Assembly: GCA_965205025.1 (NCBI GenBank)
Contig: CBDBFU010000001.1
Span: forward strand, 17,315-81,314
Source: Candidatus Poribacteria bacterium
GTDB taxonomy: Bacteria > Poribacteria > WGA-4E > WGA-3G
Reading direction: 5' to 3'
DNA length: 64,000 nucleotides
Under the pieces are notes generated by a model. That model was not told where the DNA came from. It searched no databases and saw only the letters and a program-made list of their open reading frames with translations. Positions 23,506 through 31,165 of this stretch are shown in pieces; positions within the stretch are counted from its first letter, which is position 1, and every line of letters starts with the position of its first letter. The position numbers and the translations under genes were made by a program.

Positions 23506-24751
23506 ATGAATGATGCCAATCATGATAAAGTTAACAGAATCCCGTTAGCACATCGAAATATACCTATTACTATCATTGGTGGAGGAATCCATGGAATATC
23601 CATTGCACTTCAACTGCTCCGTGAAAAGCCAGTCGCTGCGAAACATCTTGTAATTGTGGATAGATATCCACAACCACTCACTGCTTGGCGACAGAAGACC
23701 GAACGCCAGGGAATGACATTTCTCAGATCCCCAGCCGTACACCATACCACACCTGATCCTCTCGGAATCGTTGATTATGCTAAACGTCATAATCGAACAG
23801 ATGAATTGGCACCACCGTATTCACAACCATCCACAAGTCTATTTTGGGATTACTGTAATGACGCACTTGCTGAACTCACGGAACACCCTATCTATTACCA
23901 GTTTGAAGTGTCGAAATTACAATGGGATAAAGGGACAGGTAAATATCCGTTCCGTATAATATCCACAAACAATGAAGGATTTCGTAGTAGTTGTATTATC
24001 CTTGCTATCGGTGCTGATGACTGTGCGTATGTACCGCCAGCATATACCGAATGGCAATACCAATTCCCAGATAGAATTATACATGCATCTGAATTCTCGG
24101 TAGACTGTAAAGAAGTTTTTGATGAAGAAGGGAAAATAGTGATTGTTGGTGGAGGGTTAACCGCAGGAACATTGGCGAAAAGTCTAAGTGAACGCGGACA
24201 TCACGTGATGCTAATTATGAGGAATAAGGTGAAGATTGAACAGTTCGATTTTCCACCAATCTGGTTAGGTCCAAAAGCACTTACTGAATTTTCAAATGAG
24301 ACCGATTTCCTAAAAAAATACAAAATAATTCAGGAAAATAGAGGAGAGGGTAGTATCACACCGGGAGATTATGGATGTGTTAGAAAAAAGTCCAAACGTT
24401 GAAATCTATCCTGAGACCTATATTTGCAATGTTACCGCGTCACATCACTTACAAGTTGAAACAACACGCAGTATGATGTCGGGTGTATCTCGTATTATTC
24501 TCGCAACAGGCTATAGATTCAACTTACGCAGATACGGATTCTTAAAAGAGTTAGTAGCACAACACACCATTCCACTTATCTGCGGTTTACCCAAACTTGA
24601 TCCTGATTTACAATTCCATCCAATTGAGAATCTGTTCGGTACAGGCACTCTGGCGCAGCTTCAAATTGGACCAGCAGCAGGGAATATTGCAGGTTCACGA
24701 CTATCGTATGAACGATTCAAGGGAAAACTCTTCAAACAACTGTTTTTCTAA
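23506..24751 (+). CDS. FAD/NAD(P)-dependent oxidoreductase (flavin monooxygenase-like), one frameshift near 24365
   Basis: IIGGGIHG, LRSP, IVGGGLTA, ILATGY, and IGPAAGNIAG motifs. Confidence 0.85.
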
Positions 24752-25024
24752 TGCCTATATATACTTAGAGATTGCTAAAATAAAAATTCATCCTTTATAG
24801 TTTCTGTTTAAAACATAGATACATTACTTTACCTAATTGTTCTTAAGGATAGTTTTGAAGAATACCATACACTGGGATTTTCAAAATTGGTTTTTTTTAC
24901 TATTTGTATGAATCTTGATTGATGACATCTTTGTCAAATTAAATTGGTAAAGGTTAGGGTGGCAAGCACCTTAACAACTAATGTGATTACAACCCTCACC
25001 TTTTAGCCAAAGTATAAATGACAG

Positions 25025-25336
25025 TCATTCTGAATTAAGTAATTTATCAATAGACCCTACTTTACATATAATTTCTACAGGACTACCTATGTTAACATAA
25101 AATCCTAATACTTCCATTACCTTCACATTACCTTTGCTGTCTAAAAATTGAAACTTAGGATTCTTAATATAATAGTCATATTCGCCACTTGGACTATTCA
25201 TAGTTTTTATAATTTCTATATAAGAATTAGACGAATCAATATTTTCGGCTTTTGGACGGCCAAACATGAAAACCCCTATCACAACTAGTGCAAGACATAT
25301 ATATGCAGCGTATATTAAATTGTCTCGATTGAACAT
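25025..25336 (-). CDS. Hypothetical membrane-anchored protein
   Basis: N-terminal hydrophobic helix; AAGGGGG RBS; overlaps the upstream gene. Confidence 0.55.
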   Translation of the reverse strand: MFNRDNLIYAAYICLALVVIGVFMFGRPKAENIDSSNSYIEIIKTMNSPSGEYDYYIKNPKFQFLDSKGNVKVMEVLGFYVNIGSPVEIICKVGSIDKLLNSE

Positions 25337-25968
25337 TGATTACCCCCTTTTAATTTTGATTGTAAAGACTGAATACGTCTAACAGAAACTGCGATTATCC
25401 CAAATATTATTATGCAAACAGATAATATATATCCTATTTTATTTTCTACTAATGGATAAATACCGATAACTATAAGTATTGTAAATCCTAATTGAAATAT
25501 GAAAGGTGCATGCAACTCGTGAAATGCCAACGGAAAATACAATTCTGCATCTTGATGCATTCTATCATAAGATTTCTTAATAAAGTCGTACTTGAGTTTG
25601 CATTCCAATTCTTTAATAACTTCATACCTATTAGATGTAGTATCTAAATATCCTAATATATTACGCAACCATGATTCCGACAACATAGCACCTAATATAC
25701 CTATGAGACACATTGATAATGCCATCACTTTTGGACTTAAATTAACTTTTTCACTTGATCCAGCAAAAACTACACTTAGTAAACCTCCGCTACGAAGTAG
25801 TGCTGTCAATGCTAAAATTATTACAGATAGAGCAAGTATATAATACCTATTAACGTTAACCCTCCTATTACTCATTTCATTCATGTTGTCAAAATGTAAC
25901 TTGTAAATATCTAAATACTGGTTGTTTTCTGTGTCAGTATTAGAATCACTAACTTCATTACTTCCCAT
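25315..25968 (-). CDS. RipA-like multi-pass membrane protein (putative defence effector)
   Basis: YLDIYKLHFDNMNEMSNRRVNVNRYYI followed by TM helices and W...Y...YEVIKELE; GGAGG RBS. Confidence 0.6.
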   Translation of the reverse strand: MGSNEVSDSNTDTENNQYLDIYKLHFDNMNEMSNRRVNVNRYYILALSVIILALTALLRSGGLLSVVFAGSSEKVNLSPKVMALSMCLIGILGAMLSESWLRNILGYLDTTSNRYEVIKELECKLKYDFIKKSYDRMHQDAELYFPLAFHELHAPFIFQLGFTILIVIGIYPLVENKIGYILSVCIIIFGIIAVSVRRIQSLQSKLKGGNQCSIETI

Positions 25969-26268
25969 AAAAACCTCCTATTGAGAAAATATCTAAAATT
26001 TAATGTAACCTAATTGGTTAAAAAAACGTTTCGCAATTAGGACAATTTGTCACTGCATAACAACATATTATCATACCACAATTCTCGTTGCAACTTCTTT
26101 TTAATTCCACATGCATGATGTCTTGAAAAGAACGAAACTTTGGAGATTGCGTTTCAATATTGTCTAAAATGAAATTAACGATGTGAGAATTTTAAATTAT
26201 TTCATAAACTATTCATTGCGATATGTAATAGAGATAATCTAGCATAAAGTTTCAAGGAGATTTATAGA

Positions 26269-27993
26269 TTGATACGATTCCCGAATCCTGGTTCAGATAT
26301 CAACAGTATCGTTAGGATATTCTACGAGATTTTTGAAGTACTAAATTCTCAAAACTCCTTTTCTCTTGATGATATATTATTAACTCTTATTGAGCGCGAT
26401 TTAGCTACTTCGTGTGGATTCATGGGTGAAGAAGCCCTTTCGCTCTCAGTACGTCCGGATAGAAGCCGGGATCCTTTATACAATCAATCCAAAATGTACT
26501 CTGAATTGTTTAAAATATTAGGTTGGATTCATCCGTTTGAACGTAAATTAAACTTTCGATTCACTTTTTTCGGAGCACATGTTATTGAAGCAAAACTGGA
26601 TCCATCATCAATTTTTGAACAGTCTGCTTTGGGAATTGCTTATCCAAATGAGATTTTAGATGTTAAAGGAGATTATCAATTAAGACCATTTGTAACCTTC
26701 CTGCGGACATTAGAAGCGTTAGATGGGTTGTTAGCGCGTGATGAGTTAATAATCGGTCCAATGTGCCTAGATAATGACCGCGATAATAGACTTTTTGACA
26801 GTATGGTAGAGGAGATTCAAACTTTAAGGGGTTCTTCGGAAGCTTTGAATAAAAAAATGAAAGCAGTGGCTGGTCAAAGAAATATATTACTCAATACAAT
26901 GAGAAACTATACTCGGTTTCCCTTGGCGGTGTTGCGCTGGACAGGCTGGACAGAGGGTGAAACCAACAAAGTTATTTACGATAAACCGATAAAGTTTGAC
27001 AAATTAACGGATAAAGGATACAGAGTGTTGAAATTAATTGAGGGAAGTAAAGATATTAGGAAAACAGACTTACAAAAAATTAATCCGGCGACAAAAGATG
27101 CAATAACCCGCCTAGGTTTCTACCAGATTTTGGAAAGGGCAGGTTTTGATATAGATTCCATCAAGTCTATGCTTGTTGAGGATAAGGTTTTGGTCTCGAA
27201 TTATTTGGGCACCACCGACTATTCTATCCTTTTTTCTCCCTTTCAGGAACTGCATTCTGATTACTTGCATACTATTTTCCCAAACTTATCTGGTAGCAAG
27301 ACTTCCGATACTTCCTTAGATTTGTTCCATTCTCCTGTTCGTGGTAATGCTTCTGAAATCCTGTATTCAAGTGTTGAACTTAAAGGAGAAACAGGGCTTC
27401 TTATTATGGAATCAACTTCTGATCAACAGGATGTTGACAAAGAAATCCTTGGTGTTTTTAAGGATTCAATGGAGCAGGATAAGGGTCTAGAAGCGACAAT
27501 AGAATCTATCATGTCTAAATACGCAGATTTAAACCAAGATAAATTCTATCCACTCGTTGAAAAATTGTTTAAAGCGATTGGATATGATTGTAAACTTTCG
27601 AGGTATGGCGGAAACTATGAGAGATGGGATGCTATTATCAGAAGTCCGAAGCATTCGATACCAATAGAAATTAAGTCGCCCGGTGAAGAAATATTTCTGT
27701 CAGTTAAAGCTATTAGACAGGCACTCGAAAATAAAATTGTTTTGCTGGCTCGTAATGCATATCCTACAGAATTTAATGACACGTCACTTGTTGTCTGCTA
27801 TAAGTTACCTAATAACCGTTCCGAAGTTAATTCGTTAATTAATGATATATTTGAAGTTTATGATATAGTTATTGGAGTTATAGATTTTAGGACGCTGCTG
27901 CAAATTGCTGGATCTTGGTTGTTTCTGGAACAAGAACATGATAAAGGTAAGTTGGAGAAGTTACATGGCATTATCAAATTATCAAGTCCTTAA
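26269..27993 (+). CDS. Putative type IIS-like restriction endonuclease large subunit (AlwI/BstNBI-like)
   Basis: LRPFVTFLRTL..LDG.LARDEL and NYTRFPL..LRWTGW recognition-domain-like segments; C-terminal WD...IPIEIKS PD-(D/E)xK. TTG start with AAGGAG RBS; next to two MTases. Confidence 0.7.
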   Translation: MIRFPNPGSDINSIVRIFYEIFEVLNSQNSFSLDDILLTLIERDLATSCGFMGEEALSLSVRPDRSRDPLYNQSKMYSELFKILGWIHPFERKLNFRFTFFGAHVIEAKLDPSSIFEQSALGIAYPNEILDVKGDYQLRPFVTFLRTLEALDGLLARDELIIGPMCLDNDRDNRLFDSMVEEIQTLRGSSEALNKKMKAVAGQRNILLNTMRNYTRFPLAVLRWTGWTEGETNKVIYDKPIKFDKLTDKGYRVLKLIEGSKDIRKTDLQKINPATKDAITRLGFYQILERAGFDIDSIKSMLVEDKVLVSNYLGTTDYSILFSPFQELHSDYLHTIFPNLSGSKTSDTSLDLFHSPVRGNASEILYSSVELKGETGLLIMESTSDQQDVDKEILGVFKDSMEQDKGLEATIESIMSKYADLNQDKFYPLVEKLFKAIGYDCKLSRYGGNYERWDAIIRSPKHSIPIEIKSPGEEIFLSVKAIRQALENKIVLLARNAYPTEFNDTSLVVCYKLPNNRSEVNSLINDIFEVYDIVIGVIDFRTLLQIAGSWLFLEQEHDKGKLEKLHGIIKLSSP

Positions 27994-29059
27994 GCAAAAG
28001 AAATCCTCCAAAAAACTAAAAACCCTAGTGTCAGGAGTCCGCCCGATTTCTATTGAATGGGAATCAAGTGAAAAACAATCTATAATACAATTCTCTGATG
28101 GTGGACGGGCGTCGGGTTCTTGCATCCACTGCATCAATCCACCATGTTTAGAATACACTGAGGGTGAATTTGAGCTGGAAACATTTAAGGAATTTCCTTC
28201 CGATAAAAATCCAGAAGTATGTCCAACCAAAGCAATAAGTTGGCCTCAGGCGAGTAATTCCCCGACAATAGACAGTGAAGCGTGTATTTCCTGCGGGATA
28301 TGTGTCAATCGATGTCCTGTCGCGGCAATTTACCTTGACCCAGATGAGACTACAGCAGTAATTAATGACCTGCCAAACGAGTACTTTATTTCTCAAGCTC
28401 AAGAAGTTTCTGAAACAGAGCAAAAAACTTTACTTGAAATGTTTTCTGCCATTCCTGTAGTTGGAAGCCTGATTTTAGAAAGTGAGGATCTACTCCAGCG
28501 TTTCTTTGATAAATTTAAGTCAATTACAGTTGATCAAAAACAAAGTGCTCAATTCCCTAATCATCTAGTGCGTAATTTACTGTTGGAGGTAGGTGTGAGT
28601 ACGCTTATGCGTAGAAGAGGGGATACGAACATCAGAATGGATATCGTTTTTGAGTGCAGTGGGAAAAAAATAGGAACCTGTGAAGTTGAGTTAGGAAGTG
28701 CAGTTCTAGATGCTCCTAGAAATTTACTGGACAACATAGCAGTATTAGCTTCAAGATACAATCTTAACAAAAATGACATAATGCCATTAGTCGTGACGCT
28801 TTCATTGCCAAACCAACGTTCGGAGTATTGGCAGGTCATAAAGGATATTAGACAAGTGTTAAACCTACAAATCAATTCTCTCACCATTGGAATGTTAGTT
28901 CTGTTAGTTTGGAATAGGATTAAAATATCACTTGATTCTCAGGAAGTTCTTTATGCTGATTCAGACCTATACACTTTAAGAAATAAATTTGAGCAGATGC
29001 TTGATAGAAAATTAAATATCACAGAAGGTTATCCTGGGTTCATAAAAAGTCAAAAGTAG
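27965..29059 (+). CDS. 4Fe-4S dicluster ferredoxin fused to a nuclease-like domain
   Basis: CIHCINPPC...CPTKAI and CISCGICVNRCPVAAI; C-terminal RMDIV...CEVE and LPNQRSE. Likely start is ATG 27965 after a GGAG RBS. Confidence 0.8.
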   Translation: MALSNYQVLKQKKSSKKLKTLVSGVRPISIEWESSEKQSIIQFSDGGRASGSCIHCINPPCLEYTEGEFELETFKEFPSDKNPEVCPTKAISWPQASNSPTIDSEACISCGICVNRCPVAAIYLDPDETTAVINDLPNEYFISQAQEVSETEQKTLLEMFSAIPVVGSLILESEDLLQRFFDKFKSITVDQKQSAQFPNHLVRNLLLEVGVSTLMRRRGDTNIRMDIVFECSGKKIGTCEVELGSAVLDAPRNLLDNIAVLASRYNLNKNDIMPLVVTLSLPNQRSEYWQVIKDIRQVLNLQINSLTIGMLVLLVWNRIKISLDSQEVLYADSDLYTLRNKFEQMLDRKLNITEGYPGFIKSQK

Positions 29060-29819
29060 GATCTATTTGACTTTTCCATTCATGGATCCTTTTGTCGGCA
29101 ATTGCAATATACTCAGGATTAAGTTCAAAGCCTAAATAATGTCGATTTTCCATTAGAGCTGCTAAACATTCAGTTCCACTACCAACAAAAGGTACTAATA
29201 CCAAATTTTCTTTCATTGAAAAATGCTTGATTATCCGTCTTGATATTGACAACGGTTTTTGAGTTGGATGATTCACTTTCTCCTCAGCAAACCGTCGTCC
29301 TGAAAGAGTAGGAAATTTCCATACGTCACCGGCTAACCTTCCTTCTGGATGAGGAGTCCATACTTTACCATTCTTAATTATCTTATGTTTTATACGCTCT
29401 TTACTTTTATAAGGTTCTCGAATTGGTATATATACAAAGTTCTCGCTTTTTGTCATCCATAGTAAAGGTTCATAGTGAGCAGCTGGTTTCTTTTTATATC
29501 TTGAAAAGCCATTTTCATAATTCCAGATAAATAATCGACCATACTTCATTCCCATATCCATTAAGTCAACCTGCAGGTAACAGATGTAGTCATGGATACC
29601 ATAGAGAAATAAGGAACCGTTGTCTGTCAAAATCCTATGACATTCGGACAACCATTGTTGACACCATTCACGCCATACCGTTATATTTTTAAAATTTTGG
29701 TTTATTCCAAAATCTTTTCCTATGTTATAAGGTGGATCCACTATAACCAATTCAGAAGATCTATCCGGTAAATCTTTCAGTAGTTGAACTGAATCCCCTT
29801 GAATAATTGTATTTTTCAT
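29040..29819 (-). CDS. DNA amino-methyltransferase, beta class (N4C/N6A)
   Basis: DPPY motif IV before HPTQKP and PFVGSGT motif I. Likely start is ATG 29819 (MKNTIIQGDS), 1 nt after the upstream stop. Confidence 0.92.
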   Translation of the reverse strand: MKNTIIQGDSVQLLKDLPDRSSELVIVDPPYNIGKDFGINQNFKNITVWREWCQQWLSECHRILTDNGSLFLYGIHDYICYLQVDLMDMGMKYGRLFIWNYENGFSRYKKKPAAHYEPLLWMTKSENFVYIPIREPYKSKERIKHKIIKNGKVWTPHPEGRLAGDVWKFPTLSGRRFAEEKVNHPTQKPLSISRRIIKHFSMKENLVLVPFVGSGTECLAALMENRHYLGFELNPEYIAIADKRIHEWKSQIDPTFDFL

Positions 29820-29820
29820 A

Positions 29821-30864
29821 TTACTGATGGAATATTTGGAAGAGAAGAATATACTGGTGATGGATATTTGGGATATAGCAAAATGGGTACCCGTATGGAT
29901 ATAGTTTCTTGTGTGTTTGTTCGAGCATTGAAATTCCAACTAACTTGATTGTATCATTACATAAGTTTTGGTATAAATCAGAATGGAATGGGTAAAATCT
30001 TGAACCGTGCCGAAAGTCGCTAACAATAATAGCCATATACCGTTTATTTTCAATTTTAATGGTTACTTTACGGAATATATTTGTTAGTTCTTGTAAAAAT
30101 GTTTCGTACTTTTCAATATTTCCGAAATCATGCTGACTGTCTGAATATTGGGTAGCTAAATTTTTTTTCAATCTTGATTCTTTGACTTTGTGATCACCAT
30201 TTTTTGTTAATATATTCCAGTATGGAGGACTTGTTACCATAAACTGGAATTGTTCGTCTTTAAAATGTGAGAGGGCATTCCGGATATCTTCACAGATGAC
30301 CTTTTGACTGTGTTGAAGTCCGACTTCAACAGTGAGTCGTTCTTCTGAAAGTTCTGCCCACGTTGAACTTAATTCAACACCAATCCCTTTCCGATCTAAA
30401 AACGCACATGCCTTCAATGTAGATCCGATTCCACAAAAAGGATCGAGAACTTGATCTTTACTTTTTGTGAAGAAACGAATTAATCTGCCAACATCTTGAT
30501 AAGAAAAAGGCGCCGGATGAAGTTGTTCGTAATAGGTGTGGGGATGTCCTTTTCCCAATCCTTTTTGTCTCCAGTTCGATTTTGTTTCTTGAATCCAAAC
30601 TCGACCTGGTAAATCATTAAGTTTATTGCGTTCAGAATACTTATCATCCGGACGGTTTTCAATATTCAATACACATTTTGCTTCATGTCGACATGCTTCG
30701 CTCATTGCTAAGACAATCTTGGATTCTGGAATACCAAATTCTCTCACTGCTCTAAGATTTGTTATTGATGAGTCTTGATCAAACATTTCAAGTTGATTGG
30801 CTTTAATTTCGCCTGTTACATTAGTTGAAATTTGGTTTTCAGCCAATGCAGATGGTATTGTCAT
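29821..30864 (-). CDS. DNA amino-methyltransferase, alpha class (probably N4C)
   Basis: HPAPF, then VLDPFCGIGST motif I before TSPPYW motif IV. Confidence 0.92.
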   Translation of the reverse strand: MTIPSALAENQISTNVTGEIKANQLEMFDQDSSITNLRAVREFGIPESKIVLAMSEACRHEAKCVLNIENRPDDKYSERNKLNDLPGRVWIQETKSNWRQKGLGKGHPHTYYEQLHPAPFSYQDVGRLIRFFTKSKDQVLDPFCGIGSTLKACAFLDRKGIGVELSSTWAELSEERLTVEVGLQHSQKVICEDIRNALSHFKDEQFQFMVTSPPYWNILTKNGDHKVKESRLKKNLATQYSDSQHDFGNIEKYETFLQELTNIFRKVTIKIENKRYMAIIVSDFRHGSRFYPFHSDLYQNLCNDTIKLVGISMLEQTHKKLYPYGYPFCYIPNIHHQYILLFQIFHQ

Positions 30865-30888
30865 GATTGTCCCTCATTGTTTGCTAAT

Positions 30889-30916
30889 TATATTAATATG
30901 CTTATATTAATATGCT
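30889..30916. repeat. 14-bp tandem duplication of a palindromic motif upstream of the MTase operon
   Basis: TATATTAATATGCT x2, each containing ATATTAATAT. Confidence 0.6.
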
Positions 30917-31165
30917 CGGATTGCTAATGGACTTTTACCTTCATAAATTGCCAACATCCATTTTGCTGTATACTGTTCAGTCTACAAATTAAAACAGTGC
31001 CTATCTATACTTTTATGATATCAGATCTTTGATTGTAAACTTTGTGCCAAGAACAATATTTCTTCAATGTTGTCTACAGTCTAATAGGTGGGTATTGGGA
31101 GCAACTTATTAATGAATTCTGAGTTTGAATTTGTTAAGTTATTCCATGTATAGTATAGGTTTAAA

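Follow-up and report, generated by a model that had tools for sequence, protein, structure and literature searches.

A probable heterodimeric type IIS restriction-modification module with a predicted two-cluster ferredoxin domain on its small nuclease subunit in a Candidatus Poribacteria genome

Four adjacent genes on a contig of Candidatus Poribacteria bacterium raise the question of what kind of DNA-cutting system would carry a ferredoxin-like domain on one of its nucleases. The genes lie in a 64,000-nucleotide (nt) stretch of DNA (assembly GCA_965205025.1, contig CBDBFU010000001.1, positions 17,315-81,314 of the forward strand), hereafter the window, to whose full length all coordinates refer unless another locus is named. 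The open reading frames (ORFs) concerned are 26269-27993 (+), 27905/27965-29059 (+), 29040-29939 (-) and 29821-30864 (-). We call the products of the first two the large subunit A and the small subunit B, and those of the last two the DPPY and the SPPY methyltransferase (MTase), after motifs read in their translations. A preliminary description of this DNA had proposed a heterodimeric restriction enzyme resembling BspD6I/BstNBI and accompanied by two MTases. The fold of A, the paralogy of A and B, a model of their complex and the co-occurrence of the four genes speak for that proposal, and we consider it likely that the core of the module is a heterodimeric type IIS restriction-modification (R-M) system (type IIS/IIT, of the BspD6I/BstNBI kind, the "class III" heterodimers).

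The large subunit A (26269-27993, +) is a protein of 574 amino acids (aa) with a TTG start, which its AlphaFold2 (AF2) model and Foldseek comparisons identify as a putative FokI/Nt.BspD6I-like type IIS endonuclease. The model (predicted local distance difference test, pLDDT, 86.2) matched Nt.BspD6I in the PDB over its full length (best chain 5liq_A, E 2e-10) and FokI at E 1.9e-9. These full-length alignments span 615-651 columns, and all 8 of the PDB matches at E≤1e-3 are either Nt.BspD6I or FokI. The next matches are small winged-helix regulators of the PadR and MarR kind, which fits with a FokI-like recognition region in A. From the Foldseek alignment and the predicted secondary structure, we place a helical and winged-helix recognition region at residues 1-385 (26269-27423, +); from invariant residues and from the alignment to the corresponding domain of B, we place the cleavage domain at residues 400-574 (27466-27990, +). 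The WD...EIK motif that had been noticed near the end of this protein corresponds to D454-x12-E467-x-K469, the predicted catalytic residues (codons 27628-27630, 27667-27669 and 27673-27675, +), and it is invariant in 47/47 family sequences, as are R483 and R517. Neighbours of A in the ESM Atlas are unnamed clusters in which a minority of members carry FokI_cleav_dom or RE_AlwI, followed by the AlwI and FokI families. A search for relatives of A gave 1242 matches among 8000 candidates scored; in the sources both A and B are named "hypothetical", and B also "ferredoxin"-like.

The small subunit B (27965-29059, +; 364 aa) combines a ferredoxin domain with a predicted cleavage domain, according to its AF2 model (pLDDT 94.6, predicted template modelling score, pTM, 0.93) and to family searches. 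Its relatives number 216 at E≤1e-3 in a 90%-clustered collection, and 676 representatives at 50% identity and the same threshold. The FokI-like cleavage domain, delimited by hhalign to that of A and by Foldseek, occupies residues 171-364 (28475-29056, +). The resemblance between the C-terminal domains of the two nuclease genes, which had been taken for paralogy by eye, was recovered when the two proteins were compared by BLASTP (E 2e-6, with 28% identity across 147 aa) and more strongly by hhalign of the two family alignments (probability 98.5%, E 3.2e-15, 140 columns, A 413-557 with B 165-308). In the profile alignment D454 pairs with D226, E467-x-K469 with E240-x-E242, R483 with R252 and R517 with R285. 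The nuclease-like MD...EVE motif of the preliminary description is the acidic triad D226, E240 and E242 (28640-28642, 28682-28684 and 28688-28690, +), which has the spacing D-x13-ExE and is kept in 99, 99 and 98 of 100 family sequences respectively; R252 and R285 are kept in 100/100. Foldseek matches of the C-terminal part of the model include FokI (E 1e-2, probability 0.90), N.BspD6I (E 3.1e-2, probability 0.97), EcoO109I and EndoMS, and in the ESM Atlas this part adjoins small proteins that consist only of a FokI cleavage domain.

We co-folded full-length A and B, using both family alignments, and ran three control pairings alongside. The A-B complex scored 0.72 against 0.00 for the best control, with contacts agreeing between runs to at least 75% and a partner pLDDT of at least 83. 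In the confident interface of the model, helices 479-495 and 519-531 of A meet helices 249-263 and 287-299 of B, and the basic N-terminal tail of B (residues 6-12) contacts the recognition region of A. The FokI dimer interface likewise consists of two helices per cleavage domain; the model supports a heterodimer of A and B formed through a four-helix, FokI-like interface. None of the confident A-B contacts involves ferredoxin residues 51-146, an absence from the list that is not evidence of no contact.

Those residues make up the ferredoxin-type 2x[4Fe-4S] domain of B (28115-28402, +), which is delimited by its invariant Cys, by Fer4 and by fold matches. The two 4Fe-4S motifs first seen in the translation are fully conserved in their cysteines: C53, C56, C61, C86, C107, C110, C113 and C117 are invariant in 100/100 sequences. 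The first motif is a variant, C53-x2-C56-x4-C61 with C86-P following 24 residues on, and the second is a canonical CxxCxxCxxxCP (C107-x2-C110-x2-C113-x3-C117-P). In Pfam, B matches PF00037 (Fer4) with 29.8 bits against a cut-off of 21.1 and PF12838 with 27.3 against 27, and Fer4 is matched by 100/100 family members. The family profile finds only ferredoxins in the PDB, with polyferredoxins down to E 5.6e-30, and the fold matches of the N-terminal part are iron-sulfur (Fe-S) subunits such as WOR5-B and AOR (Foldseek). The domain is acidic (net charge -11, family median -5), and the tail that precedes it is basic (+6, family median +3). The N-terminal domain of B therefore probably binds two [4Fe-4S] clusters through its eight invariant Cys. 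Across the family of 676 representatives, which come from bacteria, one archaeon and phage-like contigs, the domain is invariant.

The four genes keep company over a wide range of hosts. A locus scan with one genome per species gave 20 loci (L001-L020) from about ten phyla: Poribacteria (4), Chloroflexota (6), Clostridium (2), Saccharibacteria (2) and one each from Elusimicrobiota, Phycisphaerales, Verrucomicrobiota, a Crenarchaeota archaeon, Trinickia and Enterococcus. In 19/20 of these genome loci both MTase genes lie beside those of A and B, and in the twentieth (L015) the contig stops 91 bases past B. All four genes are also present on a predicted viral contig (L026). In both of the loci that were found by way of A, a phage record (L030) and a genome locus (L031), the small subunit and both MTases stand beside A (2/2). 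Locus L031 comes from a sample of 401 genomes from the phylum of genome G042, in which A is present in 2, counting G042 itself. The conservation of the four-gene neighbourhood, on which the earlier proposal depended, is thus observed in 19/20 genome loci and in L026, L030 and L031. Gene order is convergent in 16 loci and co-directional in three.

Three of these loci hold a different form of the small subunit. In L018-L020 it is 215-223 aa long and without the Cys motifs, and a search with the Enterococcus protein (L020, Candidatus Enterococcus ikei) gave 128 relatives, with neither Cys motif in 120/120 of the matches listed. Named organisms with the ferredoxin-less form are Niallia, Listeria, Acidaminococcus, Aliidiomarina and Saccharibacteria. 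In a cleavage-domain tree built from 45 ferredoxin-type and 35 ferredoxin-less subsampled rows, with 9 A-domain rows as the outgroup, the ferredoxin-less small subunits form one clade (Shimodaira-Hasegawa-like approximate likelihood ratio test, SH-aLRT, 99), and a single change of state suffices. Because the base of the tree is without resolution, gain and loss of the ferredoxin are not distinguishable. The existence of this sister clade of ~214-aa small subunits without the domain nevertheless marks the ferredoxin domain as accessory; as judged from these alignments, it is accessory to catalysis yet strictly kept wherever it is present. The clade also provides a natural control, being the same system without the ferredoxin domain.

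How closely does the module agree with known enzymes? R.BspD6I/BstNBI is a heterodimeric type IIS enzyme (GAGTC 4/6) composed of Nt.BspD6I and ss.BspD6I. As in that enzyme, A consists of a recognition region like that of FokI and a single cleavage domain, and its best PDB matches are Nt.BspD6I chains. In the review PMC3017599, BspD6I/BstNBI, BtsI and BsrDI are treated as "class III" enzymes, whose large subunit is a nicking enzyme by itself and whose small subunit acts only as part of the complex, and the small subunit of BspD6I is said to resemble the catalytic domain of its large subunit. B shares this resemblance and is likewise encoded in an adjacent gene (compare PMC3017599). Unlike BspD6I, the module shows no detectable sequence similarity to that system, its B has double the length of the small subunit there and bears a 2x[4Fe-4S] domain, ExE replaces ExK, and there are two separate MTases. 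FokI offers a similar mixture of likeness and difference: the three-part recognition region followed by a C-terminal cleavage domain is shared by fold, and the modelled A-B interface likewise uses two helices per cleavage domain; FokI, however, self-dimerises, whereas here a second polypeptide without a recognition region supplies the partner domain, and the Pfam FokI models go unmatched. In BtsI and BsrDI, too, a large nicking subunit is joined by a small one whose catalytic motif is non-canonical and which works only within the complex, according to the same review. These two enzymes, by contrast, belong to the BsmI/Mva1269I lineage with the small-subunit motif PD-Xn-E-X12-QR, and they are absent from the fold matches of A and B. 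The module agrees with the class III description in every tested feature except sequence-family membership.

That exception belongs to a set of points that weigh against a heterodimeric type IIS enzyme and deserve to be stated together. Cluster binding, redox behaviour, cleavage and methylation are all predictions here. No member of the A family (0/47) matches PF09254 or PF09491 at E≤0.1, so that there is no sequence link to BspD6I, FokI or AlwI; because these two models are unmatched, we have filed the module as one that works like class III and not as a member of its sequence family. The A family profile, compared with PDB sequences, found no restriction enzyme at E≤10, only chance matches to F-BAR proteins, and A as a single sequence found nothing relevant there (best E 1.4). 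For the model of B there is no PDB match at E≤1e-3 (Foldseek), and its nuclease fold matches are weak. FokI dimers have already been solved, and for this reason the passing score of the complex may show likeness, not binding; moreover, the score mark was reached by 58/80 solved complexes and 2/110 mismatched pairs, counts that calibrate only roughly because our own alignments were used in the A-B folding. Since ferredoxin-less small subunits exist, the clusters are not needed for catalysis as such. Finally, B has ExE, without the Lys of ExK.

This last point suggests another explanation, namely that B is not a nuclease at all but a regulatory cap that would cover the dimerisation helices of A, block A-A cutting and free A under some redox or iron condition. 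The ExE of B would be understandable in a cap, and the modelled interface does use the helices that a FokI-like homodimer would use; a cap would not, however, need D226, E240 and E242, kept in 98-99/100 sequences, or R252 and R285, kept in 100/100. An acidic residue in place of that Lys is also known in active enzymes such as BamHI. The small subunits of BspD6I, BtsI and BsrDI are catalytic according to PMC3017599. We regard the cap as improbable.

The last residue of B is itself a Lys (K364, 29054-29056, +). This position is Lys in 96/100 family members, and a terminal Lys is also found in all seven small subunits read from L014-L020, including those of the ferredoxin-less L018-L020. Because B is without the Lys of the ExK motif, this terminal residue might complete the active site.

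Taking the module as a heterodimeric type IIS system, we propose the following mechanism. A would bind an asymmetric site and, at a fixed distance from it, cut one strand; the other strand would be cut by B, which lacks a DNA-recognition domain of its own and would act only when held by A, on which the four-helix interface of the model would position it. Each MTase would protect one of the two strands of the asymmetric site. The clusters would serve as an accessory licence, in that B would be fold-competent and active only once its clusters are assembled and as long as they stay intact. Whether both strands are cleaved would then depend on how well the host supplies Fe-S clusters and on its redox state, and A alone would at most nick. 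We favour such an accessory licence as the most likely role of the domain because the domain is acidic, lies outside the confident A-B interface and is missing in the sister clade. We hold to it loosely, as a tentative choice, and a purely structural role is nearly as likely.

In that structural role, the ferredoxin domain would help B to fold or keep it stable, or would act as a spacer, without any sensing of redox or iron, on an otherwise ordinary BspD6I-like enzyme. Structural clusters are known in many DNA-repair enzymes, B is modelled as a single compact body (pTM 0.93), and the eight invariant Cys are explained equally well by a structural as by a sensing role. The hosts include anaerobes and aerobes alike, e.g., Clostridium, Anaerolineae, Trinickia and Poribacteria, so that nothing obvious ties the system to oxygen. 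The small subunits of an entire clade nevertheless fold and persist without the domain, two clusters in the classical electron-carrier arrangement exceed what a staple needs, and the domain is acidic in the manner of soluble ferredoxins. We judge the structural explanation to be quite possible, somewhat short of an even chance. Even if the clusters should be structural, the system would enlarge the small set of class III heterodimeric type IIS enzymes known so far.

It is rather unlikely, in our estimation, that the clusters switch the cutting of the second strand in response to redox or iron. With such a switch, intact (or reduced) clusters would allow A and B to make double-strand breaks, whereas oxidised, lost or not-yet-inserted clusters would leave only A, an idling nickase. 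The strength of restriction would then follow the redox state of the cell, oxygen or the iron supply, and restriction would lag behind methylation after transfer to a new host, which would amount to a post-translational control of establishment. Should the clusters gate cleavage of the second strand, the result would be a restriction enzyme coupled to the cellular redox or iron state, a switchable nickase or cutter that might have use as a tool.

The arrangement of the Cys sets B apart from other nucleases that hold clusters. Cas4, AddB, Dna2 and Exo5 resemble B in pairing a PD-(D/E)xK nuclease with an iron-sulfur cluster, and in these enzymes four Cys flanking the nuclease core hold one cluster. 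B differs from these enzymes in that its eight Cys are all in a separate N-terminal ferredoxin domain, within residues 53-117; residues 147-364 have no Cys among positions conserved in at least 80% of the family. With no conserved Cys in its cleavage domain, B does not have the Cas4/AddB arrangement. Restriction enzymes are among the best-studied proteins, yet a search of the open-access PMC and bioRxiv literature (REBASE being outside its scope) gave none that is described as having a ferredoxin domain or any other Fe-S domain. PMC12839542 mentions a ferredoxin-type Cys region in the PAPS-reductase of BREX/Ssp systems, not in a nuclease. The nucleases are also new to the family databases: A has no Pfam, NCBIfam or PADLOC family match, the C-terminal half of B has no Pfam match, and PADLOC and NCBIfam hold no model for either nuclease. 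A and B represent a nuclease sequence family that neither Pfam nor PADLOC covers. The preliminary description had named three outcomes that would count against it, an absence of co-occurrence, a C-terminal domain without the PD-(D/E)xK fold and a match to a characterised enzyme or defence model, and on all three points the findings went its way: homologues of the ferredoxin fusion do co-occur with the endonuclease and the MTases, the C-terminal domain of B is a paralogue of the FokI-like cleavage domain of A, and the nucleases have no model in PADLOC or Pfam. What sets the module apart is that a probable heterodimeric type IIS enzyme of BspD6I-like build bears a conserved 2x[4Fe-4S] domain, carried by the small subunit.

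The modification side of the module consists of two N6_N4 MTases, both of which match PF01555 (162.7 bits for the DPPY and 72.8 bits for the SPPY enzyme, cut-off 26.7) and both of which PADLOC assigns to MTase_II. The DPPY enzyme is beta-class, probably 259 aa long, and is encoded at 29040-29819 (-); the SPPY enzyme is 347 aa long, with motif I before motif IV, and is encoded at 29821-30864 (-). The nearest solved relatives of the DPPY MTase are the adenine MTases M.MboIIA (E 1.2e-34) and RsrI, and those of the SPPY MTase are 2zie (E 3.5e-19) and the N4-cytosine MTase 8s9m (E 5.8e-8); the best PADLOC model for the latter enzyme is the MTase_II model PDLC03391 (E 2.2e-31). As leads and not as assignments, the DPPY MTase probably makes N6-methyladenine (m6A) and the SPPY MTase N4-methylcytosine (m4C).

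The two MTase genes converge on the nuclease genes with a tail overlap of 20 nt, just as had been read from the sequence, the 3' ends of the B and DPPY MTase genes sharing 29040-29059. A tail-to-tail overlap of these two 3' ends, of 8-47 nt, is present in 13/16 of the convergent loci. Such an overlap could allow interference by convergent transcription between the restriction and modification operons.

Some modules hold a fifth gene, which encodes a MerR/HTH_17 protein of 68-75 aa just upstream of the SPPY MTase (L006 10741-10959, L007 10765-10971, L008 10771-10995 and L010 10698-10925, all on the minus strand). The phage record has a Cro/C1-type helix-turn-helix (HTH) gene at the same place (L030 1752-1964, +). 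We consider these small HTH genes candidate controller proteins; the window has no HTH controller ORF at that place. The idea that Fe-S maturation takes the place of a controller protein was dropped, since a MerR/HTH_17 gene is present in four ferredoxin-type modules (L006, L007, L008 and L010), which carry both, so that the Fe-S domain and a controller are not mutually exclusive. A fused HTH was likewise dropped as an explanation for the extra N-terminal stretch of the SPPY MTase in the window (BLASTP against the HTH protein of L008, from Leptolinea sp. HRD-7, E 2.3).

The coordinates given above depend on the choice of start codons. We start A at TTG 26269 because a Shine-Dalgarno box, AAGGAG (26254-26259, +), can be read 9 nt ahead of it and because the family consensus begins at that residue. 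For B, the first possible start is TTG 27905, which would make the overlap with A 89 nt; the family alignment begins at ATG 27965, and with that start the overlap of the first two genes is 29 nt, the figure originally given. The ORF of the DPPY MTase is open up to TTG 29939 (299 aa). Alignments with homologues from outside Poribacteria begin no earlier than residue 40-45, which makes ATG 29819 the probable start (259 aa), and with it the gene begins 1 nt past the end of the SPPY MTase gene instead of overlapping it by 119 nt. A scan for promoters and terminators was uninformative, with 22 promoter-like sites against 20.2 expected.

Comparison with congeners, together with the content of guanine plus cytosine (GC), indicates how the module came to be where it is. 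A segment of ~6.4 kb (24752-31165), holding the R-M module and two small membrane-protein genes, lies between genes for an FAD/NAD(P) oxidoreductase and a DUF4159 protein, and has a GC content of 0.30-0.39, lower than the 0.41-0.43 of the flanks. Of the five congeners checked, three have an empty site: in G017 (locus L029) the flanking genes are 61 bp apart, and in G001 and G003 they are close together. In the other two it holds other cargo, namely two unknown ORFs in G005 (L027) and an Eco57I-like methylase ORF in G009 (L028). With the site empty or otherwise occupied in all five, we take the 6.4-kb segment to be an insert in a variable hotspot and the module, on this comparative evidence, to be horizontally mobile. 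Full-length B was found in 0/40 relatives (24 of the same genus and 16 of the same order); the raw match tally of 29/41 comprises the window's own genome and 28 relatives with ferredoxin-only matches (query residues 83-158, E of at least 6e-6). A had no match in the plasmid collection.

The insertion hotspot, and the presence of the module on a predicted viral contig and a phage record, bring up the possibility that it is not a restriction system but a nicking or modification module that serves a mobile element, for example in the initiation of its replication or transfer, with the ferredoxin as a link to metabolism. R-M systems are, however, common cargo of phages. No intact integrase, relaxase or replication gene was found in the window insert (ORFs of at least 60 aa) or in annotated L030, the two places that the flank annotation covers; L030 does contain a frameshifted IS3 transposase. 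In addition, the only genes present in all 22 assessable loci are the two MTases and the two nuclease subunits, which is the signature of R-M. We consider a role other than restriction highly improbable.

Two further features of the insertion site were noted. The oxidoreductase gene at its edge, Lys_Orn_oxgnase-like, is split into 23506-24402 and 24371-24751 (both +), overlapping frames of 298 + 126 aa; in five congeners the same gene is a single intact ORF of 419-452 aa, and the split is a frameshift or an assembly error. Within the insert, the stretch 25025-25968 (-), with a GC content of 0.30, holds a gene for an 8xMP "octameric membrane protein" (PF24838, E 1.2e-14) followed by a 103-aa ORF without a confident family match; neither was found next to the module in L001-L020. 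The 8xMP gene was considered as a member of the module and rejected, as it had no tblastn match in those loci; it and the 103-aa ORF may be separate cargo of the hotspot.

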